From a virus (lineage: Duplodnaviria > Heunggongvirae > Uroviricota > Caudoviricetes), in IMG/VR virus record IMGVR_UViG_2541047813_000002: a DNA stretch of 19,395 nt. One strand, written 5' to 3'. A program made the position numbers and the translations under genes. Within the stretch, counting starts at the first letter, position 1; each line of letters begins with the position of its first letter. Positions 4,121 to 19,395 of this stretch are shown here, in pieces. The notes below the pieces were generated by a model. That model did not search any database and had not been told where the DNA came from. It saw only the letters and a program-made list of their open reading frames with translations.

Positions 4121-6226
4121 TTATTGAGCTTCTTTTTGTGATGCCTGTGCGACTCTGGTGAGCGATTGTGTGACCGTACTGATCGCTCTGTCATATGCTG
4201 TGCTACCTTTTGGCGTATTTGCCAGACGTAACAAGGCATTTCGTATAACAGGGCTTTCGTATGCCTTCGCTGCTCCGCCTACGGCACCAGCAGCAGGAAC
4301 AACAAACGCAGCCGTTTTTAGCATCCCCGCTAATACTGCTGCGTTTATGATGCCACCACCAACTAACAATCCATAAAGCTGCTGACCATTTAAGTTTTGA
4401 ACGTTCGCTTTTGCCGCGTGTCTTGTATCGTTGAGGTATTTAATAACGCCGTCCAGTTCCTTTCCATGTACGCCTTTAAAGAAAGTTGCTGATTGCTTCC
4501 TGTTCCGGTGTAACGCATTAATAAACTTCTCAACACTGATATTTCCAGACGGATCAGTCGCCTTATCTACAGCATTCTGAACTATGGCTGCTCGTGCGTT
4601 TTGCCTACCATTGTCATCCAGAAGCCTGTAAAGCTGAGAACGTTCTGATGGGCTTTGGCTAAAAACGAGTTTTGTTACATCCTCAGGCGTGGCCTTGCCG
4701 CTGGCTATTGCCTTTTGAACGCGCGTTCTTCCCATCATGTCATTGAATTTAGACCATGAACGATCAACCCTTGCCATATTAATGGCTTCGTCTGCTCCAA
4801 GATTTTTGGCTACGGCTTTTTTCATATCCGCCGTATATGCCTTGTAGATAATATCGCTGGCTTTCTGGAGCGTATCTTTATCAACAGTGTCAGATGACGC
4901 CATAAATCGCTTTCGAAGATCGGTTCTGTTTTCCCTCGCCAGACGCAGGTCATTTGGTCCGCTGGTGATATCGTCTTTAAATTGCTGCAAGACTTTTACC
5001 GCGGCTCTATCCTGAGATTTGCCCGGGCGGCTTAACACGGCAATCTGATTGTCGATAGCTTTTACCGTGTTTGAGAGATCGACAGGGGTATCCCCCATAG
5101 CGTCAATTATGCGGTTATATCGCTTTCCTGCTGCCTCAATGAATTTTTGTTGCCCTTTAGTCGCAGATTCATAAAGCTGTTTATCAGAAATGCCACCCAG
5201 ACCATCGCTAAATGTTCTGACTAAATTTTCTCGTGCTTGTTGTTGATTCAGCCGATTCTTACCGGTTCCAAAAAAAGGAACTCTTTCGCCTAATGTCTGA
5301 GCCTGACTCTGCATAAAGGTTTTATCTTTCAGCATGTCACTGGTCATTAACGGCAGATTTCTTTCCGATGCAAAGTCGACAGCAGCCTTTGCTTCAGGCG
5401 ACATATCACCACGAACAGCCCTCGAAACCGCACTCGCTGTATTTTCCAGCCCCTTACCAATACCACCAATGCCAGCAGAAATTACCGTTTGTAACGGTTC
5501 AATATCTTCTCCACCAGCAAGGCTAGTGGCTCCCTGTAGTGCTAAATCTGTAGCTGCTGATTTTCCTATGGCACCAAGCACCGTTCCAGCCCTGCCAGCT
5601 GGTGTAAACGCCAACGCATTAGCAAGAAACGAAGTCAGGTCTTGCGGTGATAAACCCGGCTTGTTCAGGGCATAATCACCTGATGGCAGAGAAACGATAG
5701 TATTCCCCTTCTCATCCTGCCTTAATGTCGCCCCCATTCCCTGAAGAATCTTTTCCTGAGACGCGTCAGAGCCGAAAAGTTGAGACCATCCAGCCTTTAG
5801 GGCATCCATGCTTAGTGAGTTCAATTCTGGGGCAGAGGCGACATTTTGCAGTCTCTCCATCTCTGGAGTCATTCGGCTTTCGCCTGTTATAGCATCGCGC
5901 ATCGCAGCCCCAAGACTGGCTCCCTGTTCTGCTGAACGCTCAAGCCCCTCTCTTTGCTGAGTAGCTAACTTTGCATACCCTGACGCAAGAGAATTATCAG
6001 ATGATGTATGTTGAATATTTTGAGTTGCTGATTGGGATCGGTCTATTTCATTCGTTGATGGTAGTGGATAGGCAGCATAAAAAGCCTGCTTAGCCTGCTC
6101 TACACTTTCTCCGGCTTGCGGGGCAACGACTTCATTGAAGTATTGCTCCTGAGCCTGCGCTTTTTGTTCTGGTGCTAACGCCTGATACTGTGGAGAGGCG
6201 ATAACATCTTTCCATGCTTTAGCCAT
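4121..6226 (-). CDS. Large Q/A/G-rich protein (701 aa) with C-terminal glycine-zipper hydrophobic segment; phage ejection/DNA-transfer protein-like (P22 gp16-like by size and position)
   Basis: Long ORF; ATGA start/stop overlap with the upstream gene at 6226; C-terminal LLVGGGIINAAVLAGMLKTAAFVVPAAGAVGGAAKA. The family assignment is an inference, not a match. Confidence 0.85.
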   Translation of the reverse strand: MAKAWKDVIASPQYQALAPEQKAQAQEQYFNEVVAPQAGESVEQAKQAFYAAYPLPSTNEIDRSQSATQNIQHTSSDNSLASGYAKLATQQREGLERSAEQGASLGAAMRDAITGESRMTPEMERLQNVASAPELNSLSMDALKAGWSQLFGSDASQEKILQGMGATLRQDEKGNTIVSLPSGDYALNKPGLSPQDLTSFLANALAFTPAGRAGTVLGAIGKSAATDLALQGATSLAGGEDIEPLQTVISAGIGGIGKGLENTASAVSRAVRGDMSPEAKAAVDFASERNLPLMTSDMLKDKTFMQSQAQTLGERVPFFGTGKNRLNQQQARENLVRTFSDGLGGISDKQLYESATKGQQKFIEAAGKRYNRIIDAMGDTPVDLSNTVKAIDNQIAVLSRPGKSQDRAAVKVLQQFKDDITSGPNDLRLARENRTDLRKRFMASSDTVDKDTLQKASDIIYKAYTADMKKAVAKNLGADEAINMARVDRSWSKFNDMMGRTRVQKAIASGKATPEDVTKLVFSQSPSERSQLYRLLDDNGRQNARAAIVQNAVDKATDPSGNISVEKFINALHRNRKQSATFFKGVHGKELDGVIKYLNDTRHAAKANVQNLNGQQLYGLLVGGGIINAAVLAGMLKTAAFVVPAAGAVGGAAKAYESPVIRNALLRLANTPKGSTAYDRAISTVTQSLTRVAQASQKEAQ

Positions 6227-7359
6227 TAATCACCCCATAGTGAAGAAAAGTTACTGCTGGCTGCTGGCTGTGATACCTGCTCAGATTGCGGCAATGTCTG
6301 CGACGAAGAAGAAGTTCCTCTGTCAACTGCTGAAATAACCCGCAAAGCATCATAAGCTCGACCAGAAGCAGCTTTCAGCGAATTGAACTGGTTTTCCATC
6401 TTCCGGCGCTTGGTATCAATGGTTTTTGTGGAGTCGCCAGGCTGAGGGAAATACATTTGATAATATTTTGACATTTCAGCAGGTGCGATAGCTGCCCCTG
6501 TTTCCTGACGGAGTATTGCCATTATTGCGTCATTAGCATTAACAACGTATTGCTGCTCTGTTGGGCTGAGCGTTAAGTTAGCCAGCGTCCCATTACCCAA
6601 AGCATTATTAATGATCGCCACTCGCTGTGGGCTAAGCTGGTCTCTCAGTGTATCTATTGAATCAAGAGCATCCCTAACCCTGTATGCAAATCCAGCAGCT
6701 TTTTTAGCCCCTTCTGGCGACTTTTCCATGATCTTTTGGGCTGTTGGCAAAGCTATTGGACGAAACCCATCTCCAGATATTGGCTGGTTTAGTTTTCCCT
6801 GCTCTTCACTTCCGTCTGTGTAGTATTTTGTGACAGTGCCATCATCGTTTTCTCTAACACTCATTAATTTTTTGGCGTTTGTATTAATTCCAGCCGCTGC
6901 CGCAAATGCCGCCGCCCCCTCTGGATCCGCCTTTAACATTTGAGCGTACTGATTGTAATTCTGCATTGCTGCTGTTGGTGCATATGCTGACGTTAACGCA
7001 TTTGCTCGGCTAATATCCTGCCCTCTCGCCTGAAGTGCTTCGCCAGCCTGATTGCTGCGGATTGTTTCTGCCAACTTGCCACGCTCAATATCCCGACCTT
7101 CCATTTGATCTTTGATATCGAAATACTTCTCATGACCGAGAGAAAACAGTGCCATACTACCAGCAAGCCGCTGGAATCCCTGTGGATCATTAACATGCAT
7201 TTCGGCAACAGACTCAGGAGAAATTCCCAAGCGACGCATTTCATCTTCGTTATCTGCTATGAATTTTCCAAATGCCCCAGTTCCGAGCGAAGATGCGATT
7301 TGAGCACTAGTCGCAAGATGACCAATAGAATTTCTCTGGTCGTCATCAATAAAGCCCAT
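6226..7359 (-). CDS. C-terminal 377 codons of an apparently split ~470-aa gene (P22 gp20-like size)
   Basis: Reading frame stays open and protein-like upstream of the ATG back to a TGA at 7420-7422. No usable RBS before ATG 7359 (AAAGGG abuts the ATG). Confidence 0.75.
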   Translation of the reverse strand: MGFIDDDQRNSIGHLATSAQIASSLGTGAFGKFIADNEDEMRRLGISPESVAEMHVNDPQGFQRLAGSMALFSLGHEKYFDIKDQMEGRDIERGKLAETIRSNQAGEALQARGQDISRANALTSAYAPTAAMQNYNQYAQMLKADPEGAAAFAAAAGINTNAKKLMSVRENDDGTVTKYYTDGSEEQGKLNQPISGDGFRPIALPTAQKIMEKSPEGAKKAAGFAYRVRDALDSIDTLRDQLSPQRVAIINNALGNGTLANLTLSPTEQQYVVNANDAIMAILRQETGAAIAPAEMSKYYQMYFPQPGDSTKTIDTKRRKMENQFNSLKAASGRAYDALRVISAVDRGTSSSSQTLPQSEQVSQPAASSNFSSLWGD

Positions 7360-7634
7360 CCCTTTCTGAACGCTTTCAAATTCTTCTGGATACTCAGCAT
7401 TTTGTTTCTGTCTCCAGACTCAAAAGCCCCGGCATATGCTTTCTGAAACTCTGCTTTACGCTGTTGTTGACGTGCCTGCTGATTAATCTCAGCAACGCCT
7501 CTTAGCCCCTGTAGCGCCATTAAACCTACGTTTGGCTGCTGCTGATACTGCACAGGCTGAGGAACGGAAGAACGAGGAGCATTATCATTTTGCGGTGCCA
7601 TGCTAGGCAGCCCGCCAAGTTGCCATGTCGCCAT
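7257..7634 (-). CDS. N-terminal fragment of the same split gene; translationally coupled to the upstream 225-aa gene (TAATG); protein-like only for the first ~80 codons
   Basis: ATG 7634 overlaps the stop of the 225-aa gene. Sequence is Q-rich like its neighbours until about 7400, then becomes junk-like (ALLMTTREILLVILRLV) where the 377-codon frame takes over. Confidence 0.5.
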   Translation of the reverse strand: MATWQLGGLPSMAPQNDNAPRSSVPQPVQYQQQPNVGLMALQGLRGVAEINQQARQQQRKAEFQKAYAGAFESGDRNKMLSIQKNLKAFRKGWALLMTTREILLVILRLVLKSHLRSELGHLENS

Positions 7635-8311
7635 TAGAATCCAAGCCCCCCAACAAGACCAATAAGCCCACCACCAATAGCCCCGGCGACATTACCTATA
7701 CCCGGAACAACGGAACCAAGTTGCGCACCCGCTAAAGCGCCTGATGCCGCCCCACCAATACCACGCGCAAGACTGGATGGCTGCTGCGCCTGACCTGCAC
7801 GAATAGCGCCAAGCCCCTGCAAGAGTTGCCCGGTATTATTGGCGTAGTTTTGCCCTGCTGTTGCCTGCCCTGATGCCGCATTCATCCCGACATTTAGCAG
7901 GTTTCCATAATTTTGCATTTGCCCACTAAGCCAATTGTTATAAAGCATGGGCGCAATGGAAGATAACTGGTTACTGGTAGCTGTTGAGCCAAGCCCCCCG
8001 GTAGCTTCTGCTGAGACAAGGTTCTGATAACGGGCCTGATCTGCCTGTGTTTTATATAAACCAGAACCAAAGAAATCATTCGCGGCTTTATTCTGCCCTT
8101 CCAGAGTCATCAGTCCTTGTAGTTGTTGTAAAGCAGGCAATCCGACTTCTGCATACGGCTTGAGATTATTCATCACCGTATTCCACTGCTCGCGCTGCAA
8201 ATCAATTGCCTGCTGCTGGGCCTTCGCCTGAGCTTTAGAGGCACCACCATCACCGCCTTTTTCGTATACGGCACGATTGAGATGTTTATGAGCTATATGG
8301 GTAATTAACAT
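7634..8311 (-). CDS. Q/G-rich protein (225 aa) with C-terminal glycine-zipper; ejection-protein-like (P22 gp7-like size)
   Basis: ATG 8311 with AAGGAA upstream; overlaps the stop of the 153-aa gene. Contains EKGGDGGASKAQAKAQQQ and ends GIGNVAGAIGGGLIGLVGGLGF. Confidence 0.85.
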   Translation of the reverse strand: MLITHIAHKHLNRAVYEKGGDGGASKAQAKAQQQAIDLQREQWNTVMNNLKPYAEVGLPALQQLQGLMTLEGQNKAANDFFGSGLYKTQADQARYQNLVSAEATGGLGSTATSNQLSSIAPMLYNNWLSGQMQNYGNLLNVGMNAASGQATAGQNYANNTGQLLQGLGAIRAGQAQQPSSLARGIGGAASGALAGAQLGSVVPGIGNVAGAIGGGLIGLVGGLGF

Positions 8312-8766
8312 TCGCTGAATTCCTTATATTGTTGCCGAGTTAACTGATAAAGCGTTACGCCGACGGGTTTACCACATCTGATATAAGCATCATCAAGGTG
8401 ACCAACACGGGTAGCGCCAAGCAAACGGATAATTGCCCGTCCGTATTTGGTGGTGTCAGGAACCATGGTAATGCTGTTAAGGAATGGTGAGTTTTCGAGA
8501 AGCCATTTGCAGAATAATCGATGCCCTTGCAGTGCATATTCACCACGGAATCCGGGGTCGTACACCGCATGGCATTCAACAATGCTATGCCAGAAGTTAC
8601 GCACTTCATGAACGCCAGCCAGCACCAATCCTTCGTAGATACCGAGATATACCGCATCAGGCTTGATGTAGTACGTGTGCCCCGGCTCAACAATATTTTC
8701 GGTATTGCCAGGCTCGTTAAGAAAGGCCTGTAATCGCACAGGGTTATCAATAAATTTTAGTTCCAT
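8305..8766 (-). CDS. Hypothetical protein (153 aa), first large gene of the operon
   Basis: ATG start; ORF; stop overlaps the start of the next gene. Confidence 0.8.
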   Translation of the reverse strand: MELKFIDNPVRLQAFLNEPGNTENIVEPGHTYYIKPDAVYLGIYEGLVLAGVHEVRNFWHSIVECHAVYDPGFRGEYALQGHRLFCKWLLENSPFLNSITMVPDTTKYGRAIIRLLGATRVGHLDDAYIRCGKPVGVTLYQLTRQQYKEFSEC

Positions 8767-9528: not shown

Positions 9529-12288
9529 TCATTCTTCAGATGAGTTGTAATCTCCTGGCTGGTAATTGAGTACATAAACGTTTATTTGTCGTCCCTGAAT
9601 ACGTGGTGATTTTCTTTGGTATCCACGACCGCTGTTTGGTGGGGTTAGCATCCCGGCTTTTTTCAACACTTCAGCAAACTGTTTTGCGTTGAAACCACAT
9701 GCGATCTCCTTTTCAAATGTGGCCGGGAATGTGTAGAAAATCATTGGGCTTTCGTCATGTTCTCCACGCTGACGGTATCCGGCTAAATCTTTGATGGGCA
9801 AATCTGCCGGGCTGTATGGAAATGGTGCAAAACGGCTAAGCCCATAGGCATTAAGAAATGCCTCCGTTTGTTCAATAATCTGCTGATGTTCTTTGTTACC
9901 TGTGCCGAACTCGCGCAACCATGCGTTATAGCTGTGCTGTATCGCATCACGGCATGTCTGAGCATCCCAGCCTGTTACAACCTCGCCTAACAGCAATGCG
10001 GCCTCCAGAATGGCAAATCGCGCGGCTACACGGTGAACCTGCTCACCATAATCGGATGGGATCAGACTTCTCCATCTGCTTTCGCAGTCACGAACAGTTT
10101 TAATTGCCTGTTGCTGGTGGTCTGCCAGCCATTTAATCCACTCACGCCCGGCTGCGCCGTGGTGATGCTGGTAAGCGTCTTTCAGTGCGTCTGCGTGCTG
10201 TTTTCCGTTCTGGTAATCGTGAAAGCGTACTGCTTTACTCAACGGAATATTCAGCAGTCGCACCAGTTGTCCGGCTTTGGTTTTTCGCCCGGAAGTAGCG
10301 ATAAATGTTTCTAAATCCATTTCTCCGGTGCTGATTGCCACTGTACGCCAGCGTTTTAGATCCCGGTTTCCACCATCTTTAGCGCCTTGCAGTTTCCCTA
10401 CACCGTTAAATAACGCATAGGCAGACTGTGAAACACTGACAGGATCAGCGCCCTGACCAACTTCATCAAGCGGCATTAGTCCGTCATTGTGGGCGGCGGC
10501 TTCATTTGCCAGCCCCAGCGCGGTTCCGTACCACGTCAGCCGCAGTAAATCAGGGTTGCCGTATAAGCTGCTCGCCACGTTTGCCGTGGTGGTCTTACCT
10601 GCGCTCGACTGCTCATAGAAATGAATGCCGAACCCGTCAGCGCCCACCAGCCCAATCAATGGCGCTGCCAGTGCTGCGCCGATCCCGGTCATCATTGAAT
10701 AGTTACCAAAGGCCAGACGCGCCACGTTATCACGCCAGCTTTTCGCGCTCCCTGAGACGGTATATCCGGCTGCGGCTGAGCTTCTCCCGCTGAACAGCAC
10801 AGGATTTTCAGGTGTTCCGATGATTTCCCCATCAGGCATGATGTACGCTCCGCATTGCCAGCCAGTGGCATGAGCAACACGCCACAATTCACGAGAGCCA
10901 CTGCGTTGTAGCCAGTCTGCCAGTATTGCTCTGAGGCTGCTTTTGGTCGTGACATTTACCCCACCAGCTTTAAGTGTGCGCCATCCTTCACGTTCACCAA
11001 TATCAGCCAGTGGAATGGCAGCGGTTGTCGGCGTTTCAGAACCAAACGACAGCCAGCGAAGAATGAGATACTGGTCTTTATCGTCTCTGCCAGTACCGAT
11101 AACGCTTAACGGCGAACATAACCAGCTTTCGTTATTGATGATTTCTCCACTCTGGCTGTCAGCTCTCGGAGATACCCAATAAATACCATCCTCTCGGCTT
11201 TCTATTCTTGGTTTCAGTGGGTCGGTATCCATAACCTTAAAATCGCTTCCCTCAATGGTCTGTGGCTCCTGTTTCACGCCATTACCCTGTGGTTGGTACA
11301 TTGACTTATTGAACGTTTCTGTGGCGCATTTAATGCCGTGTTTTTGGTGGTAATCATTCCAGTCTGCTTTGTGATCTGTCGGGGGTAATGCCACCCATCC
11401 AGAAACAGATAAAGCTGCTTTTTCTGCTGCTATTCTCCCCGTGTTTTGTCTTCCTTCGCTGTGGTCGTTATCCGCAGCAATGATGATTTGTGCTGAAGGA
11501 TATTTATCCCGCAGTACCTGGGCGACATATAACAGGTTCCCGGCATCAATCGCCGCCACTGTCAGCGCCTCTGGACGAATTAAATGGGCAGATAATGCCG
11601 TTGCCAGCCCTTCTGCGATTAAGATGCTCTGTGTTGTTTCTGGTGCGTTTATGGCGTGATATGCTCCCCGTTTTGCTGAACCTGTCAGGAGTCTTTTTTC
11701 ACCATGTGAGGTAATAGTCTGTGCTGCTGTGACTGCGCCGGATTTATCCACCAGCGCCAGCAACAGAGATCCATCGGGCAACACGGGGAATGTAAAATCA
11801 CCTACCCCTTTCGCAACCAGATAATCAGATTTACCGTTTACAGCCTTTCTGCGCATGTCATCAAACTGACGGGAAAACGTATCCCGTCTTTGTTGTTCGT
11901 CCTTCTCTGCCCTTTTCAGGCGCTCCTGTTCGCGTCGCTGGCGCTCGGTTTCCAGTTGTTCCCGTTTCTGGCTGGTGGCTTCTGGTGTTTCCGTTGTCCG
12001 GTAATCAATACCCAGAACATCAGCGGCAAGAAGCGCCGCCTCTGTTGTGTCGCAGTTATTTACGCGTTTAATTAAATCCAGCCCATCACCAGCGCCGCAC
12101 TGATTACAGATGAAGCTACCGCGCCCGTTGTCATCGAACCGGAATCGATCTTTGCCCCCACATGCAGGGCAGGGAGCATGACGGCGCGGAGAGTCAGGGA
12201 CATTTATGTTCAGGCAGCCCAGCACATGAGGCCAGTTGTTTTCAGACGCACTGATAACCTGACGGATAAGATCAATGTTTCGCATCAC
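9529..12288 (-). CDS. Primase with zinc-ribbon and Toprim domains plus a P-loop NTPase-like domain (P4 alpha-like); probable start ATG at 12285
   Basis: CPACGGKDRFRF...FICNQCG zinc ribbon; Toprim acidic motif IIIAADNDH; P-loop-like SSAGKTT; 919-aa ORF. Confidence 0.95.
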   Translation of the reverse strand: MMRNIDLIRQVISASENNWPHVLGCLNINVPDSPRRHAPCPACGGKDRFRFDDNGRGSFICNQCGAGDGLDLIKRVNNCDTTEAALLAADVLGIDYRTTETPEATSQKREQLETERQRREQERLKRAEKDEQQRRDTFSRQFDDMRRKAVNGKSDYLVAKGVGDFTFPVLPDGSLLLALVDKSGAVTAAQTITSHGEKRLLTGSAKRGAYHAINAPETTQSILIAEGLATALSAHLIRPEALTVAAIDAGNLLYVAQVLRDKYPSAQIIIAADNDHSEGRQNTGRIAAEKAALSVSGWVALPPTDHKADWNDYHQKHGIKCATETFNKSMYQPQGNGVKQEPQTIEGSDFKVMDTDPLKPRIESREDGIYWVSPRADSQSGEIINNESWLCSPLSVIGTGRDDKDQYLILRWLSFGSETPTTAAIPLADIGEREGWRTLKAGGVNVTTKSSLRAILADWLQRSGSRELWRVAHATGWQCGAYIMPDGEIIGTPENPVLFSGRSSAAAGYTVSGSAKSWRDNVARLAFGNYSMMTGIGAALAAPLIGLVGADGFGIHFYEQSSAGKTTTANVASSLYGNPDLLRLTWYGTALGLANEAAAHNDGLMPLDEVGQGADPVSVSQSAYALFNGVGKLQGAKDGGNRDLKRWRTVAISTGEMDLETFIATSGRKTKAGQLVRLLNIPLSKAVRFHDYQNGKQHADALKDAYQHHHGAAGREWIKWLADHQQQAIKTVRDCESRWRSLIPSDYGEQVHRVAARFAILEAALLLGEVVTGWDAQTCRDAIQHSYNAWLREFGTGNKEHQQIIEQTEAFLNAYGLSRFAPFPYSPADLPIKDLAGYRQRGEHDESPMIFYTFPATFEKEIACGFNAKQFAEVLKKAGMLTPPNSGRGYQRKSPRIQGRQINVYVLNYQPGDYNSSEE

Positions 12289-13804: not shown

Positions 13805-14064
13805 TTCGCACTCTCCACATCGATTAAACCGATATCTATCAGGGAGGTAACTTTTTGTAGCCAGCTATTGATTACTGTCGCCTGTTCCCCTCCCACCGAG
13901 GGAACAATCTCATTCATCACATGAACCAGACCTGTGCGCGCTCTGGTAAGCCGTTCAGTCGCGCAATCTGCGGGAGTGAATGTGTCTGGATATGGCTCTT
14001 CGCGCCCCAGCAATGATTCAATTTCCAGCTCACACGGATGACGATAAATTAAGTTGATATTCAT
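13801..14064 (-). CDS. Hypothetical small protein (87 aa)
   Basis: ATGA overlap with upstream gene; part of the coupled operon. Confidence 0.65.
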   Translation of the reverse strand: MNINLIYRHPCELEIESLLGREEPYPDTFTPADCATERLTRARTGLVHVMNEIVPSVGGEQATVINSWLQKVTSLIDIGLIDVESAK

Positions 14065-14255
14065 TTTTCACCCCCAAGAATTACCAGCTCTGCACGGGCA
14101 TCGTTAACCAAAGATGAGCACGCTTTAATCGCATCCACGACATCAGCAGCGTCCATTTCTTCAGCCGAAAGACTGACAGCAACCAGGACAGCCGCTGCTT
14201 GCTCGATTAATTGAAGTGCGGACGTAAGGCGAGGGGTATTAATTGAGTTATTCAT
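14061..14255 (-). CDS. Hypothetical small protein (64 aa; [10 protein letters not shown]...)
   Basis: ATG 14255 with GGGGG upstream; ATGAATAA overlap with the stop at 14248-14250. Confidence 0.6.
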   Translation of the reverse strand: MNNSINTPRLTSALQLIEQAAAVLVAVSLSAEEMDAADVVDAIKACSSLVNDARAELVILGGEK

Positions 14256-14466
14256 TGGTTGCCCCCGTTTTTCCTGGCATTTCGCCACCTTCCAGCAGGA
14301 AATGAACGTCGCGAACGGCGAGGTCCAATATCGCGAGTAACGCCTTCAGTCTTTCGTCTCGTGAGGGAGAGTTGCTCACCAGAATGTCGTTAATCACTTC
14401 TGTCAGTGTGATGATCTGGCTTGTGCGTTCGAGGGGGTCCATATGCACATCGTAGGTTTTAATCAT
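14248..14466 (-). CDS. Hypothetical small protein (72 aa; [17 protein letters not shown]...)
   Basis: GGAGGTGG sits 6 nt upstream of ATG 14466; ATGATTAA overlap with the stop of another frame. In-frame with the long ORF 14248-15315. Confidence 0.5.
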   Translation of the reverse strand: MIKTYDVHMDPLERTSQIITLTEVINDILVSNSPSRDERLKALLAILDLAVRDVHFLLEGGEMPGKTGATNE

Positions 14467-15315
14467 GTGCCACCTCCATGCGGATACGACCAGCAAAAAA
14501 GCAGACGTGATCGCGCACCAGAGAACGGCGAGCATCGCGTTCAGACTCGGCAGCAATATGATGAATTTTGGCGGTAATTGTCGGGCAATCGCGGCGAACT
14601 GCGGCGATAATCCAGATAAATTGCGTTTTTTGGGTAGGGGTAGTAGCCAGCATGTGGCAGCCTCCTTGTACTGGGAATTCTTCCCACCACCGGAGCTGCG
14701 AAACTCGCTGGTGGTGGACTGAACAGAGTTCGCAGTACCGGCGTACAAGGAAACCGGCCAGCCTTTCGGCTGCCCTGTCCAGCCCACCATAATTTTGCAA
14801 GCGACGCGGATTATAACCACATCACTGAAAAAAGTGTGAGTCTGGCTAACGGCACAAAAAAAGACGCTCGGCGCGTCATGTGTCGCCTCGTACATTTCCG
14901 GGCTGCGAAACCCGGCACCCGTTTTATGAGGTGCCTTATAACCATAAACCGTGTTGCCGCATAACGGCAAGCTCTTTTTTATGGACTCCGAAAACTCACT
15001 ATTGGAAGAACCAGAAGCACAGTACATCGTGCTCATTTCGTTAACGTCACGCGCGTGGACGAATGTTTTTGTGGAGTCACTACACGAGCGGAAGACATCA
15101 TCTACGACCAGAAATTTTCTGGCGCAGCCGCTGACCTTCTCAATGCTAATATCATCGCCCGAGATTTCTGGTATGGTTAAGGCATCCGTTCCGACCACCA
15201 GCAAATGATAAACTTTGCTTGTATCTGCTGTATTAATGCCTGACTTTGCCGTCATATTGCTGGATTTTGGCGACATGCCAGCCAGTGAAAATGTCTTCTT
15301 CTGGACGGTTAGCAT
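14248..15315 (-). CDS. Long ORF (355 codons) anchored by a well-supported start at 15315; the 3' extent is doubtful and it may be chimeric. The N-terminal ~150 codons are protein-like.
   Basis: GGAGGTT sits 6 nt upstream of ATG 15315, which overlaps the upstream stop (ATGCTAA). The distal half is W/P/C-rich and overlaps two RBS-supported small ORFs. Confidence 0.4.
14459..14653 (-). CDS. Possible small protein (64 aa; [11 protein letters not shown]...), or part of a structured non-coding region
   Basis: AAGGAGG sits 7 nt upstream of ATG 14653; stop coupled to the next start. The region also has open frames on several other strands and frames and nested inverted repeats. Confidence 0.35.
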   Translation of the reverse strand: MLATTPTQKTQFIWIIAAVRRDCPTITAKIHHIAAESERDARRSLVRDHVCFFAGRIRMEVAHD

Positions 15316-15491
15316 TTGTTAACCTCCGCGAACTCCTTCATGAAACGTGCCAGCGGTTGTACGCATGGCGATTGATACCCGTCGCGATAAAACGTCACTC
15401 GGTTGTGAGACACGCTTTCGACAGTAACGAGTGCTCCGTGGGCATCTTTGTAGCGTTTTTGTGGTTGTGGTGTTCCTGTTGGCTTAGACAT
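15309..15491 (-). CDS. Hypothetical small protein (60 aa; MSKPTGTPQPQKRYKDAHG...)
   Basis: GGAGGTGG sits 5 nt upstream of ATG 15491, which overlaps the stop of the Rha gene. The longer 89-codon ORF would overlap Rha by 95 nt. Confidence 0.55.
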   Translation of the reverse strand: MSKPTGTPQPQKRYKDAHGALVTVESVSHNRVTFYRDGYQSPCVQPLARFMKEFAEVNKC

Positions 15492-16317
15492 TGACCACCT
15501 CCAGACGCTTGGCGAGCCAGCGTTGCGACAGGCGGGTGAGTTCTCCTTTACGCTGCTCATATTCCATGCCCATATCAATTAACGTGATATTGGTGCTTTC
15601 GAGATATGAGAGGTGCTCAAGCTGTTCTGCGTTCATATGGTCGCGAGGTTCGCCAGAATAGCCATTTATCCGCGCCCACTGCTTAGCAGTTAGCCCACCA
15701 AGAACGATACGAGAAATCATATTGCTCTCGTTTGTGTAGTGGTGTTGCTGCGTCGTTTTCCCCTGCTCGGCACGGGCCATATTCAGCGCATCGCACATTG
15801 GCTTAAAGTTGTTTGCGGCACTGATACGGGCTTTTAGCTGGCGACGATAGCGGGCGGCGATTTCAGGCACGCTACGCTGTAATTCTTCCTCGCACTGGAT
15901 GAAATAACGGCGGATAGCGCGACCCTGATCATTGCGTTCGATCATTGCCAGTTCTTTCGCCATTCCGACACTTAACAGATAGTCTTTGCCGGGTCTGCCA
16001 GACTGCTTAATCTTGCTGTAAGCCGCGCCATTCGGGCTTTTCCCCAAATTTGGGGAAATTGTTTTATGGACTGAGTAATCGTGCCCAATGGTGAAGTCAT
16101 ATTCAGAGATGCGATCAGTGATCCATGTAGAGAAGTCTTTTCCCACGCCCAACGCTTTGTGTAACGCTTTTGCGCTAACAATATTGGTTTCACGCCCACC
16201 GATATGACCAGGAATAACCGGGACAATTGCGGCAAATTCATTACCGTTAATTGTGCCCAGAGAGGCGTTCAGATGAGGGGCAGCCTCAGAAATTAATCTG
16301 CTTTTTTCGATGTTCAT
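15484..16317 (-). CDS. Phage antirepressor-family protein (Rha-like N-terminal domain plus KilA-C/ANT-like C-terminal domain), 277 aa
   Basis: GGAGA RBS; motifs DYLLSVGMAKELAMIERNDQGRAIRRYFIQCEEEL and an N-terminal Rha-like segment. Confidence 0.85.
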   Translation of the reverse strand: MNIEKSRLISEAAPHLNASLGTINGNEFAAIVPVIPGHIGGRETNIVSAKALHKALGVGKDFSTWITDRISEYDFTIGHDYSVHKTISPNLGKSPNGAAYSKIKQSGRPGKDYLLSVGMAKELAMIERNDQGRAIRRYFIQCEEELQRSVPEIAARYRRQLKARISAANNFKPMCDALNMARAEQGKTTQQHHYTNESNMISRIVLGGLTAKQWARINGYSGEPRDHMNAEQLEHLSYLESTNITLIDMGMEYEQRKGELTRLSQRWLAKRLEVVNV

Positions 16318-16329
16318 TTTCAGTCTCCG

Positions 16330-16761
16330 TTAGGCGGCGTTAAACGCGTCCGGGTAGAGTTTCAGAATGTCGGCAATTTCCTGCTGAGAAAGTCCGTTGT
16401 GATCATTTATGTTCGCAAGATGGTTAACATGAGTGATCACTTTCAGAACATCACCACGGCAGGAGAAACGGTAGCGAAGGTGTGTTCCGATACCATCAGG
16501 ATTCTTTTCGTCGATACGCTCCAGAGTGATTCCAAGCTGGCGTTCTAACTCTGTTGCATAGTTACGACCAGAAGACAGACGGCAGTAGCGAAGAATGTCA
16601 TTTTCTGTCCATCCCTCTATACCAGTACGCAGCATATAGACTCGGGCGCGATGCTTTTTCGGTGTGCGCTTTGGTGCTTGAAGGGATTTTGTCAGGGGCG
16701 TAACATCAGATACGCGAATATCTGAATTAGCCGCCTGTAATGGGCGGTTTTTCTTATTCAT
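16330..16761 (-). CDS. Hypothetical basic protein (143 aa) coupled to alpA
   Basis: TAATG overlap with the alpA stop; ORF. Confidence 0.75.
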   Translation of the reverse strand: MNKKNRPLQAANSDIRVSDVTPLTKSLQAPKRTPKKHRARVYMLRTGIEGWTENDILRYCRLSSGRNYATELERQLGITLERIDEKNPDGIGTHLRYRFSCRGDVLKVITHVNHLANINDHNGLSQQEIADILKLYPDAFNAA

Positions 16762-16958
16762 TACGCTACCTCGCCACGCGACTCAGCGATGCGCTGATTA
16801 ATCCATTCTTCAATTTCACTTTCAATAAACGCAATTGATCGGCTTCCAATCTTTACAGATTGAGGGAATCGCTGTTCTTTGATGAGCCGATAAATCCACG
16901 CTTTGCTGTAACCAGTACGGCGTTGAACCTCAGAAAGACGAATAAATGATTGAGACAT
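16761..16958 (-). CDS. alpA: AlpA-family HTH transcriptional regulator/excisionase-like protein (65 aa)
   Basis: AGGAG sits 6 nt upstream of ATG; LSEVQRRTGYSKAWIYRLIKEQRFPQSVKIGSRSIAFIESEIEEWI is typical of AlpA. Confidence 0.9.
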   Translation of the reverse strand: MSQSFIRLSEVQRRTGYSKAWIYRLIKEQRFPQSVKIGSRSIAFIESEIEEWINQRIAESRGEVA

Positions 16959-18037: not shown

Positions 18038-18180
18038 ACGCCACCCCGCGCCCCCTAATTCTGACGGCTATGCCAGCCCGTAGGGGTGTACGGGTTTTCG
18101 GGGATCAGCCTAGACATAGCCTATTCTTTGTTCGTCTACATAAGTCTACTACCATTGCTTAACACTGTCTATTCATACAG

Positions 18181-19395
18181 TTAAGCTCGTTTCCCAAACG
18201 AACCATGAACAACGTTCTCCTCCTTCTCCAGCGCATCCATATAGTCGGCATACCATTGAAGCATCTCCCGCCGTCCATCCAGATATTGCGCATGGTTGTA
18301 TGTGCCACGAATTGAGTTCTTATCAACGTGAGCGAGCTGCGTTTCTATCCACGCGGTGTTATAGCCCTGCTCATGCAAAATCGTGCTCATAGTGTGTCGG
18401 AACCCATGACCAGTTACACGTCCAGCGTAGCCAATGCGCTTAAACACTTGGTTTATGCTGGCCTCACTCATTGTTTTCCTTGGATCATTGCGCCCGGGAA
18501 ACATAAGAGGGTAATTGCCTGTTATTTCTCTAATCTTCCCAATAAGCGAAAGAGCCTGCTCAGACAATGGCACAATATGAGGCCGCCGCATTTTCATACG
18601 TGAAGCGGGTATCTCCCAGATAGCCTTGTTGAAATCAATTTCATCCCATAATGCGCCACGTAGTTCGCCAGTCCGCAAGCCGGTGATAATCAGTAGACGA
18701 GCCGCCATAACAACCAATGCGCTTCCTGAGTAACTGGACAATGCCTTGAAAAAATCAGGTAATTCTTTAGCTGTAAGGAAAGGGTAATGATTAGATTCAT
18801 GGCCTTGCATCGCGCTAGTAAGGTCTGGTGCAGGGTTATACTCTGCGCGACCAGTGACTATTGCATAGCGGAAAACTTCCCCGCACCGTTGCCTCACTTT
18901 TTTGGCTTTTTCTGTCGCACCGCGCCCCTCGATGCGCCGCAGCACATTCAGAAGTTCAAGTGGTTTGATTTCGGCGATTGGTTTTTTGCCAATGTAAGGG
19001 AACACATCTTTGTTGAAGGCTTCGAGGATGTCTGAAGCATAACCAGCAGACCATTTTTTTAATTTGCTGCTGTGCCACTCAAGGGCAATATCTTTGAAGG
19101 TGTTGTTTAACTGCGTTTCCCGGGCAATCTTTTCCTCTCGTTTCGCTTCCATCGGATCGATACCACCAGCGATACCTCTTTTCGCATCTTCACGTTTTGC
19201 CCGAGCATCGGCTAGAGTAACCTCAGGATACACACCTAGTGCCAATAGCTTCTCTTTACCAGCTACACGATATTTAAGTCGCCAGTATTTACCTCCATTA
19301 GGTTTTACCAAGAGATACAAACCGCCACCATCGGCCAGCTTGTAAGCCTTCTCTTTTGGCTTGGCTGTGTCTATTTGACGGGCATTGAGTTTCAC
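18181..19395 (-). CDS. int: Tyrosine integrase, P4-type (404 aa); apparent GTG start at the window edge
   Basis: Catalytic motifs HGFRHTMSTILHE (HxxR) and IRGTYNHAQY (Tyr nucleophile); N-terminal arm-binding domain. Confidence 0.95.
   Translation of the reverse strand: MKLNARQIDTAKPKEKAYKLADGGGLYLLVKPNGGKYWRLKYRVAGKEKLLALGVYPEVTLADARAKREDAKRGIAGGIDPMEAKREEKIARETQLNNTFKDIALEWHSSKLKKWSAGYASDILEAFNKDVFPYIGKKPIAEIKPLELLNVLRRIEGRGATEKAKKVRQRCGEVFRYAIVTGRAEYNPAPDLTSAMQGHESNHYPFLTAKELPDFFKALSSYSGSALVVMAARLLIITGLRTGELRGALWDEIDFNKAIWEIPASRMKMRRPHIVPLSEQALSLIGKIREITGNYPLMFPGRNDPRKTMSEASINQVFKRIGYAGRVTGHGFRHTMSTILHEQGYNTAWIETQLAHVDKNSIRGTYNHAQYLDGRREMLQWYADYMDALEKEENVVHGSFGKRA

Follow-up and report, generated by a model that had tools for sequence, protein, structure and literature searches.

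An RNA-based immunity switch of the P4 type inside a long open frame of a P4-like satellite prophage of Escherichia coli

C4-type RNAs are stable RNAs of about 77-80 nt that are cut from a longer transcript, with RNase P acting at the 5' end, and Icd/Kil proteins are cell-division inhibitors that inhibit division or kill when expressed. In satellite P4 the parts follow one another in the order PLE, seqA, cI RNA, seqC and kil, nested in eta, and in the immI region of P1 and P7 the P51 promoters are followed by a1 and b1, the c4 RNA, the a2 and b2 targets, icd and ant; the P1 record annotates a1, b1, a2 and b2 with 'repression of icd ant translation'. A third relative, the isrK - orf45 (STnc1160) - anrP locus of Salmonella Gifsy-1, sits in a lambdoid prophage, and the short IsrK RNA is described there as activating an antirepressor-like gene, not as conferring immunity on a replication operon; Hfq binding and activity in trans of the short RNA are known only for Salmonella IsrK. 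In P4-like prophages IsrK corresponds to seqA and C4 to CI (PMC3632133). In P4, PLE, seqA and CI lie within the eta gene, and termination is prevented when eta is translated from the late promoter, according to the passages of PMC10111431 that cite Forti 1999; translational coupling of eta to the upstream alpA homologue has also been reported (PMC10111431).

The DNA analysed here, called the window throughout, is a stretch of 19,395 nucleotides from a virus of the Caudoviricetes (IMG/VR record IMGVR_UViG_2541047813_000002). Its region 14459..14934, on the minus strand, is an RNA-based immunity switch of a P4-like satellite prophage of E. coli, a system already well known, and comprises a leader RNA, a small antisense RNA and a cell-division-inhibitor gene inside a long frame that is kept open. 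A P4-like satellite immunity region, in a Gram-negative PICI-type island adjoining yicC, is the best explanation overall, with a probability of about 0.85. Among the genes of the island recognized with Pfam there are a P4-type integrase, Phage_AlpA, AntA, a Zn-ribbon/Toprim/DUF927 primase and a P22 injectosome translocase, and the int-alpA RNA was found in the window as well. The window has the layout of P4-like satellites and Gram-negative PICIs, which consists of an integrase and AlpA zone, a Bro/antirepressor zone with immunity RNAs, a replication zone with primase, and captured late genes (PMC10111431). The promoter, the isrK/seqA leader, the C4/CI RNA, the b' and a' targets and icd/kil were identified on the basis of homology and covariation, and the features are as follows:

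15309..15327, minus strand: start region of the eta-like ORF, with Shine-Dalgarno GGAGG (15327..15323) and ATG (15315..15313)
14248..15315, minus strand: eta-like ORF of 355 codons, 'ash family protein' in RefSeq
14941..14970, minus strand: candidate internal constitutive promoter of the P4 PLE / P1 P51b type, from conservation and alignment
14857..14934, minus strand: isrK/seqA-type leader RNA, Rfam RF01394
14934..14915, minus strand: isrK hairpin 1
14914..14899, minus strand: isrK hairpin 2, whose loop carries target b1, UUCGCAG (14909..14903)
14894..14886, minus strand: target a1, UGUACGAGG
14877..14863 plus U-tract, minus strand: intrinsic terminator, GACGC-GCCGA-GCGUC and U7, called by a terminator scan
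14707..14794, minus strand: C4/CI-type antisense RNA, full-length match to Rfam RF01695
14753..14742, minus strand: C4 loop a2, UUUCCUUGUACG
14735..14729, minus strand: single-stranded C4 junction b2, CUGCGAA
14702..14696, minus strand: downstream target b', UUCGCAG, in the loop of hairpin 14684..14717
14661..14671, minus strand: downstream target a', GUACAAGGAGG, holding the icd Shine-Dalgarno AAGGAGG 7 nt before the ATG
14459..14653, minus strand: Icd/Kil-like gene of 64 aa, the first gene under predicted C4 control
14248..14466, minus strand: gene of 72 aa overlapping the icd stop (ATGATTAA)
12288..9529: primase, in the downstream replication operon

A generic sigma-70 scan called no promoter for the RNAs and missed the predicted one, which has a -35 hexamer TTGCCG (14970..14965), an 18-nt spacer and a -10 hexamer TATGGT (14946..14941), with a predicted start at G14934. 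The arrangement TTGCCG-18-TATGGT is kept in related loci and aligns with the homologous P4 hexamers (TTGCCT-18-TATAGT) and with those annotated for P1c4. The leader scores 69 bits with the isrK model RF01394, which is related to c4-a1b1 (RF03163), against a gathering score of 50, the P4 seqA leader scoring 61 bits, and in an alignment of 52 sequences 98.2% of the cells of the isrK structure are paired, with 8 of the 17 pairs changed on both sides.

The C4 model gives 81.1 bits here (gathering score 45) versus 75 bits on P4's own CI. The initial annotation had suggested that a regulatory RNA analogous to that of P4 may be embedded in this stretch, and this proved essentially correct; judged by sequence, the C4 RNA is a homologue of the P4 CI RNA, more than an analogue, and the leader is likewise a homologue of the P4 seqA leader. 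The C4 fold is a long closing stem around two inner hairpins, and the RNA folded alone takes this structure at -45.8 kcal/mol. Across 46 sequences 99.8% of the cells are paired, 14 of the 27 pairs having changed on both sides; none of 500 shuffles was as good, and slid controls reached at most 52% paired. Covariation across related loci, which had been proposed as a check, thus supports both the C4 and the isrK folds through compensatory pairs. The two models also match P4 CI and seqA, P1 c4 and its a1/b1 leader, and Gifsy-1.

Antisense and target segments covary three ways across 81 distinct loci. In the window, b2 CUGCGAA is complementary to UUCGCAG at two sites, and a2 CCUUGUAC(G) is complementary to UGUACGAGG and to GUACAAGGAGG. 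All 81 distinct loci keep 7 of 7 Watson-Crick pairs of b2 with both b1 and b', using nine different heptamers; a2 pairs with a1 over at least 7 bp in 80 of the 81 and with a' over at least 8 contiguous bp in every one, with 24 different a loops. Non-cognate antisense-target combinations give a mean of 3.5-4.5 pairs. The b' hairpin has as its 5' arm CCACCACC (14717..14710), which is the 3' end of the C4 closing stem, and as its 3' arm GGUGGUGG (14691..14684), and in the minimum-energy fold of the unprocessed leader b1-b2 and a1-a2 are paired in cis.

The nested inverted repeats listed in the initial annotation are all present at these positions:

14684-14691 / 14710-14717: inverted repeat CCACCACC/GGTGGTGG
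14663-14671 / 14743-14751: inverted repeat TCCTTGTAC/GTACAAGGA
14690-14702 / 14729-14741: inverted repeat CCGGAGCTGCGAA/TTCGCAGTACCGG
14898-14916: CCGGG-CTGCGAAA-CCCGG

The direct repeat GCTGCGAAAC(T/C)CG was also found, at 14695 and 14902 (spacing 207), and all of the listed repeats are parts of the immunity system: the two copies of GCTGCGAAAC are the b target sites, and CCTTGTAC/GTACAAGG is the C4 loop versus the icd ribosome-binding site. The stretch is indeed highly structured, since the 295-nt minus-strand RNA 14934..14640 folds at -128.4 kcal/mol, compared with -100.2 +/- 5.3 for its shuffles (z = -5.35; 0 of 200 as stable). Its description as GC-rich stands only in part, the G+C content being slightly raised (0.51-0.54 versus about 0.47 in the window) and the enrichment modest. 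As had also been noted, ORFs of at least 60 aa are open in four frames, two per strand, and the open-frame list holds, besides the 355-aa ORF (14248..15315, minus strand), the following:

14459..14800, minus strand: ORF of 113 aa
14465..14722, plus strand: ORF of 85 aa
14568..14792, plus strand: ORF of 74 aa

These three are chance. The 113-aa ORF was rejected as a gene, being open in just 3 of 24 colinear homologues, and so were the two plus-strand ORFs, open in just 12 and 4 of the 24.

The two small ORFs with ribosome-binding sites that had been seen to overlap the long one are real genes, the Icd-like gene (14653..14459) and the 72-aa gene (14466..14248), and both are so annotated in a 99%-identical genome (G749). 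The Icd/Kil-like gene matches NCBIfam NF033153 with 71.6 bits (cut-off 25), and full-length comparison of its product gives identities of 36% with P4 Kil and 26% with P1 Icd. Diversity at its three codon positions is 0.133/0.109/0.357, a strong third-position excess and thus a clear coding signature. The 72-aa gene has no Pfam or NCBIfam match; it shares the frame of the eta-like ORF and forms the C-terminus of that ORF.

The window resembles P4 in the order of its parts, in matching both Rfam models, in the a'/Shine-Dalgarno context (..AGGAGGCUGCC..AUG) followed by an Icd/Kil-type gene, in a long ORF whose start precedes the internal promoter and which spans all of these parts, in the primase operon downstream and in the integrase/AlpA context. 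The specificity sequences differ: b2 is CUGCGAA in the window and UUCUCAC in P4, and a2 is CCUUGUAC and CCUGUGAA, respectively, which should make the two elements hetero-immune. Between isrK and C4 lie 62 nt in the window and 107 nt in P4, the N-terminal part of the long ORF is longer than that of P4 (122 codons upstream of the RNA region), and this ORF is predicted to be coupled to a DUF4222 gene whereas P4 eta is coupled directly to alpA. Moreover, P4 eta ends with kil in frame, while the window frame is +1 to icd and runs into the next gene, ending 211 nt past the icd stop, so that the P4-type nesting, with icd as the in-frame end, is not found here. P1 is like the window in having target pairs both upstream and downstream, the downstream 'a' lying over the icd ribosome-binding site; its c4 is a C4 homologue (69 bits), and its leader matches c4-a1b1 and, weakly, isrK. 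In P1, however, the corresponding frame has stops and no long frame runs through the region, and the gene controlled after icd is the antirepressor gene ant instead of a replication operon. In Gifsy-1, isrK scores 79 bits and C4 69 bits.

The eta-like ORF crosses the internal promoter, isrK, C4, the targets, icd (in the icd +1 frame) and the next gene (in frame). Its start lies 381 nt upstream of isrK and overlaps the TAA (15311..15309) of the upstream DUF4222 gene (ATGCTAA), an overlap that fits translational coupling to that gene. Residues 116-220 align with residues 14-133 of P4 Eta (E 7e-14). The N-terminal 122 codons show pN/pS of about 0.4-0.6, and the 122 aa that they encode have no Pfam or NCBIfam match. 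The initial annotation had regarded the distal part of the frame as not protein-like, had raised the idea of a chimeric ORF and had named codon substitution by frame as a check, with synonymous bias over the whole 355-codon frame, together with the absence of a small RNA, as the result that would speak against it. No such bias was found over the RNA-overlapping part, where the three codon positions have diversities of 0.145/0.145/0.128 in isrK, 0.312/0.372/0.291 in the spacer and 0.234/0.215/0.249 in C4, in contrast with the strong third-position bias in icd. The chimeric idea is thereby supported, with the correction that the long ORF is no accident, its openness being conserved. In 81 of 82 distinct loci the frame is open without a break from before isrK as far as the icd stop or beyond, a count that overstates the number of independent events since related loci share ancestry. 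This conserved openness makes the 355-codon ORF the counterpart of P4 eta.

Two simpler accounts of the frame have to be weighed against these data. An ordinary protein gene ('Ash family protein') with a structured mRNA and no regulatory RNA would agree with the RefSeq annotation and with the match to Pfam PF10554 Phage_ASH (99.4 bits, gathering 26, on aa 124-232, that is nt 14946..14620), but it is scarcely credible in view of two Rfam families above their gathering scores, the abundant compensatory base-pair changes, the three-way covariation of antisense and target segments, an RNA stretch devoid of coding signature, and clear homology to two RNAs defined by experiment, P4 CI and P1 c4. The converse account, with RNA genes only and the 355-codon ORF an annotation artefact, open by chance in conserved, G+C-rich RNA sequence and never translated, draws on the missing third-position bias over the RNA part, on a Phage_ASH model that covers just the RNA region and on the contradictory PGAP annotation of two 99%-identical genomes. 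Concerning the latter, the 'ash pseudogene' of G749 was rejected as a hint of a broken frame, given that translation shows the frame to be intact. We consider this account very improbable, because the frame remains open even at the hypervariable a and b sites and across a spacer that varies in length. Measured from the start of isrK to the AUG of C4, the loci fall into six length classes (102, 105, 129, 132, 144 and 189), all multiples of 3, the other two frames have 1-7 stops, and other frames and the plus-strand ORFs are open in just 3-12 of 24 colinear loci. Furthermore, the frame is +1 to icd in 47 of the 82 distinct loci, as in the window, and nested in frame as in P4 in 35, and the icd +1 frame is stop-free in 47/47 loci where it is used versus just 8/35 where the frame is nested; translation in the same frame has also been reported for P4 eta and Gifsy-1 orf45. 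An 'Ash' frame that is purely a translation artefact of the RNA genes was therefore rejected on the lack of stops and the restriction of indels to multiples of three.

A different logic would be that of Gifsy-1, in which IsrK-type activation is the main function and C4 repression secondary: the leader, acting in trans, would open a closed read-through RNA and so enable translation from the AUG at 14790 inside C4 and then downstream. The leader does match isrK and ends in a terminator, and the read-through RNA, in its minimum-energy fold, has leader and C4 paired in cis, like the inactive 'structure A' of Gifsy-1. The C4 AUG is invariant in 46 C4 sequences, and translated orf45 of Gifsy-1 starts there, at A107, where AUGGUGG in the 5' stem of C4 supplies the AUG; its frame is that of the window ORF. 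However, the Gifsy-1 frame, which begins inside C4, ends at the start of anrP (AUGA), where coupling is possible, whereas the window frame passes the icd AUG out of frame and has no such coupling; AUG 14790 is not preceded by a Shine-Dalgarno sequence, and the genomic context is that of P4, whose CI is a repressor. Activation as the main logic is thus unlikely here. IsrK-type activation and C4 repression are not mutually exclusive.

Under the P4-like immunity reading, a mechanism can be proposed by analogy with P4, P1 and Gifsy-1, which supply its RNA processing, RNA stability, termination and translation of the long frame. The internal promoter (14970..14941) would start transcription at about G14934; many transcripts would end at the isrK terminator, and those that read through would be processed to a stable C4 RNA of about 80 nt, leaving the two segments a2 and b2 unpaired. 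Segment b2 may then bind b' just 3' of C4 and a2 may bind a' over the icd ribosome-binding site, both also being able to pair with a1 and b1 of the leader. With icd translation blocked, the untranslated RNA would be subject to Rho-dependent termination, which would silence the downstream replication genes up to the primase; the Forti abstract reportedly places a Rho-dependent site, timm, inside kil. When the putative upstream promoter of the alpA - AntA-like - DUF4222 operon fires, ribosomes would enter the eta-like frame at 15315 and translate through isrK, C4, the targets and icd, and pairing and termination would be prevented, so that the upstream-started transcript would be insensitive to immunity.

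The frame is conserved open and yet lacks third-position bias where it overlaps the RNAs, so that selection probably acts on translation through this region and not on the residues that the middle of the ORF encodes. A broader proposal, to which we give even chances, is that the frame crossing C4 is a conserved 'ribosome track', selected for openness only, and that P4 eta, the 'Ash family' and Gifsy-1 orf45 are one device with three interchangeable arrangements: a frame in which icd/kil is nested in phase (P4 eta); one shifted by +1, bypassing icd and fused to the next gene (the window and the other loci of its class); or one that opens with the invariant AUG of C4 and ends at the gene that follows (Gifsy-1 orf45). 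If this is true, the device would be translation overriding an antisense-RNA switch. The minor new points are the two frame classes, eta being +1 to icd here, and the use of the same frame by Gifsy-1 orf45.

As a textbook system met again, the region matters little biologically. RefSeq records that are 99-100% identical have nothing here but an 'ash family protein', or else a pseudogene with two small genes, and omit both RNA genes, so that readers of such annotations would miss the immunity switch of the element. The carrier strain UPEC132 is 100% identical. The related loci form a natural experiment on antisense specificity, in which each of the loop and heptamer variants is matched at three sites, and they also present a frame that is probably preserved so as to be translated, irrespective of its product. 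The specificity of the window, set by its b2 and a2 sequences, allows a prediction of the related satellites against which it would have immunity.

The window represents a chromosomal island of E. coli that adjoins yicC, and its 14000-15600 portion is 100% identical in several complete genomes. All genes around 14459-14950 lie on the minus strand, in the order given below.

Features of the island in order of falling coordinates (gene order from Pfam and Rfam)
19395..18181, minus: P4-type integrase, first in the order
18053-18120, minus: int-alpA RNA (Rfam RF02996, 46.7 bits; gathering score 35.8), directly downstream of the integrase gene and ahead of the DUF6387 gene
between the int-alpA RNA and AlpA: DUF6387 gene
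16958..16761, minus: AlpA
16317..15484, minus: AntA-type gene
between the AntA-type gene and 14459-14950, minus: DUF4222 gene
14970..14941, minus: predicted internal promoter, TTGCCG-18-TATGGT
14934..14857, minus: isrK, a seqA-type leader RNA (Rfam, 69 bits)
14794..14707, minus: C4, a CI-type antisense RNA (Rfam, 81 bits)
14653..14459, minus: icd, directly after C4, encoding a 64-aa Icd-like protein (Icd-like model, 71.6 bits)
between icd and the primase, minus: several small overlapping genes
12288..9529, minus: Zn-ribbon/Toprim/DUF927 primase
4121-8766, minus: P22-type injection genes, beyond the primase at the far island end (Pfam and RefSeq)

Among the injection genes, Pfam identifies Inj_translocase at 7359..6226 and RefSeq adds DUF2824 and a "phage DNA ejection protein", which is consistent with captured helper late genes of a PICI-type satellite. 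As PMC10111431 describes them, P4-like satellites and Gram-negative PICIs consist of a zone for integration, a Bro zone that holds immunity RNAs, a zone for replication and late genes that were captured, and the gene order of the window is this layout.

The initial annotation had proposed a P4-like regulatory RNA embedded at 14459-14950, and both isrK and C4 are indeed matched there at full length and above the Rfam gathering scores. The same two models match the seqA leader (61 bits) and CI RNA (75 bits) of P4 as well as the isrK locus of Gifsy-1, while in P1 the C4 model matches c4 RNA and the a1/b1 leader is matched more weakly; IsrK and C4 of P4-like prophages have been equated with seqA and CI, respectively (PMC3632133). 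The Icd-like protein shares 36% identity with P4 Kil and 26% with P1 Icd, in both cases over its whole length. The four ORFs, the inverted repeats and the direct repeat GCTGCGAAAC(T/C)CG (spacing 207) named in the initial annotation are all present, and the minus-strand RNA from 14934 to 14640 (295 nt) is highly structured (z = -5.35; none of 200 shuffles equally stable); G+C is raised, though only slightly for a region called GC-rich. The observation was thus real and its interpretation is supported.

Related loci were collected with the Icd-like protein as query (19 loci, other Enterobacteriaceae) and with an Icd/Kil protein alignment (80 loci in viral contigs). C4 lies immediately upstream of icd in all 19 loci of the first set, 18 of which carry isrK at the gathering score, and nhmmer detected C4 in 80 and isrK in 78 of the 80 viral-contig loci. 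One locus (L023 2363-2450) has an Icd-like gene and C4 RNA with no isrK match at the gathering score, its upstream leader resembling more the P1 a1/b1 type. Unique related sequences lend strong support to the Rfam structures, with 99.8% pairing and changes on both sides of 14 of 27 pairs for C4, and 98.2% and 8 of 17 for isrK; no shuffle reached the observed values and slid controls gave at most 52% pairing. The parts of this region are identified with high confidence.

Mature C4 alone folds into the family structure (-45.8 kcal/mol), leaving unpaired the segments a2 (UUUCCUUGUACG, hairpin loop) and b2 (CUGCGAA, junction). The heptamer UUCGCAG, the exact complement of b2, occurs as b1 in the loop of isrK hairpin 2 (14909..14903) and as b' right after C4 (14702..14696), these being the two sites of the repeated GCTGCGAAAC. 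Segment a2 pairs with a1 (UGUACGAGG) in the isrK tail and with a' (GUACAAGGAGG, 14671..14661), which includes the icd Shine-Dalgarno sequence; the a2-a' pairing corresponds to the inverted repeat CCTTGTAC/GTACAAGG, and CCACCACC/GGTGGTGG forms a hairpin with one arm in common with the C4 closing stem and b' displayed in its loop. Matching a and b sites are annotated in the P1 record as "repression of icd ant translation". In every one of 81 distinct loci b2 is fully complementary to both b sites, with nine different heptamers, and a2 forms at least 7 pairs with a1 in 80 and at least 8 pairs with a' in all 81, with 24 different loops, whereas the average for non-cognate combinations is 3.5-4.5 pairs. 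Such three-way covariation argues strongly that antisense-target pairing is the selected function, and it suggests that many immunity specificities exist.

The predicted internal promoter stops 7 nt short of the isrK 5' end. Conserved among related loci, it aligns with TTGCCT-18-TATAGT of P4 and with the P1c4 hexamers annotated in P1, and was not called by a generic promoter scan of the window. A terminator-like hairpin (TTGCCGCATAACGGCAA with a T-rich run behind it; 14954-14970, plus strand) overlaps its -35 element and spacer; related loci do not conserve this palindrome. A second copy of TGGTTATAA (14810-14819, minus; compare 14936-14944) creates a perfect TATAAT at 14815..14810, 16 nt upstream of C4, which may act as a second promoter, serving C4 alone; it is kept only where the isrK-C4 spacer is 62 nt and is absent with spacers of 21-25 nt.

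The RNA genes lie within a 355-codon minus-strand frame (14248..15315), the counterpart of P4 eta. Its Pfam Phage_ASH match (aa 124-232, nt 14946..14620) coincides exactly with the promoter, isrK, C4 and their targets, and in P4 the same model also matches the old "cI ORF" over CI RNA. In 19 loci and P4 the frame begins ahead of isrK and meets no stop before icd ends, against 1-7 stops in the other frames of the same region. It is open in 81 of 82 distinct sequences, the exception (L088 1223-1366) having a 1-nt deletion in the isrK terminator U-tract, and the spacing between the isrK start and the C4 AUG has six values (102, 105, 129, 132, 144 and 189), each a multiple of three. These data speak against a translation artefact. 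The other candidate ORFs fared differently across 24 colinear homologues (74-100% identity): the plus-strand ORFs 14465-14722 and 14568-14792 and the 113-aa ORF that extends the icd frame upstream are open in only 12, 4 and 3, respectively, and are treated as chance.

Diversity at codon positions 1/2/3
isrK, eta-like frame: 0.145/0.145/0.128
spacer, eta-like frame: 0.312/0.372/0.291
C4, eta-like frame: 0.234/0.215/0.249
icd, own frame: 0.133/0.109/0.357

By this measure no coding signature was seen over the RNA part of the eta-like frame, unlike icd, while the 122 N-terminal codons look weakly coding (pN/pS 0.4-0.6, position 2 least variable). The ORF has a Shine-Dalgarno sequence and its ATG overlaps the DUF4222 gene stop (ATGCTAA). 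In the passage of PMC10111431 that cites Forti et al. (1999), P4 eta begins upstream of PLE, the P4 internal promoter, holds seqA, CI and kil, is coupled to the upstream gene and is translated from the late promoter only, its translation blocking termination. The features of the 355-codon ORF match those reported in that passage, and it aligns with P4 Eta over the RNA-region part (E 7e-14).

In P4 and 35 of the 82 distinct loci the eta frame enters icd/kil in frame, whereas in the window and the other 47 it is +1 relative to icd, because there is one base fewer between the Shine-Dalgarno sequence and the ATG. In this class it crosses icd without a stop and merges into the next gene's frame, ending in the window 211 nt beyond the icd stop; no stop interrupts the icd +1 frame in any of the 47 loci of this class, against only 8 of the other 35 in which it is stop-free. 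For Gifsy-1 "orf45", which lies downstream of IsrK, the IsrK paper shows translation that starts at A107 and is coupled to anrP. Counted from the isrK start, position 107 falls on the AUG of AUGGUGG in the 5' stem of C4, an AUG that does not vary among 46 C4 sequences, and orf45 (L105, the Gifsy-1 locus, 34073-34210, minus) ends where anrP begins; relative to C4 it thus uses the frame of P4 eta and of the window ORF. PGAP treats two genomes that are 99-100% identical in contradictory ways: it calls a single 355-aa "ash family protein" in E. coli genome UPEC132, but an "ash" pseudogene together with an Icd-like gene and a hypothetical one in the 99% identical G749, even though neither genome has a break in the long frame; isrK and C4 are missing from both records.

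The region belongs to a well-known kind of system, whose mechanism would carry over here from P4, P1 and Gifsy-1. Mildly new are only the family-wide conservation of an open frame across RNA genes with its amino acids unconstrained, the two frame classes of the eta-like ORF and the identity of this ORF with Gifsy-1 orf45.
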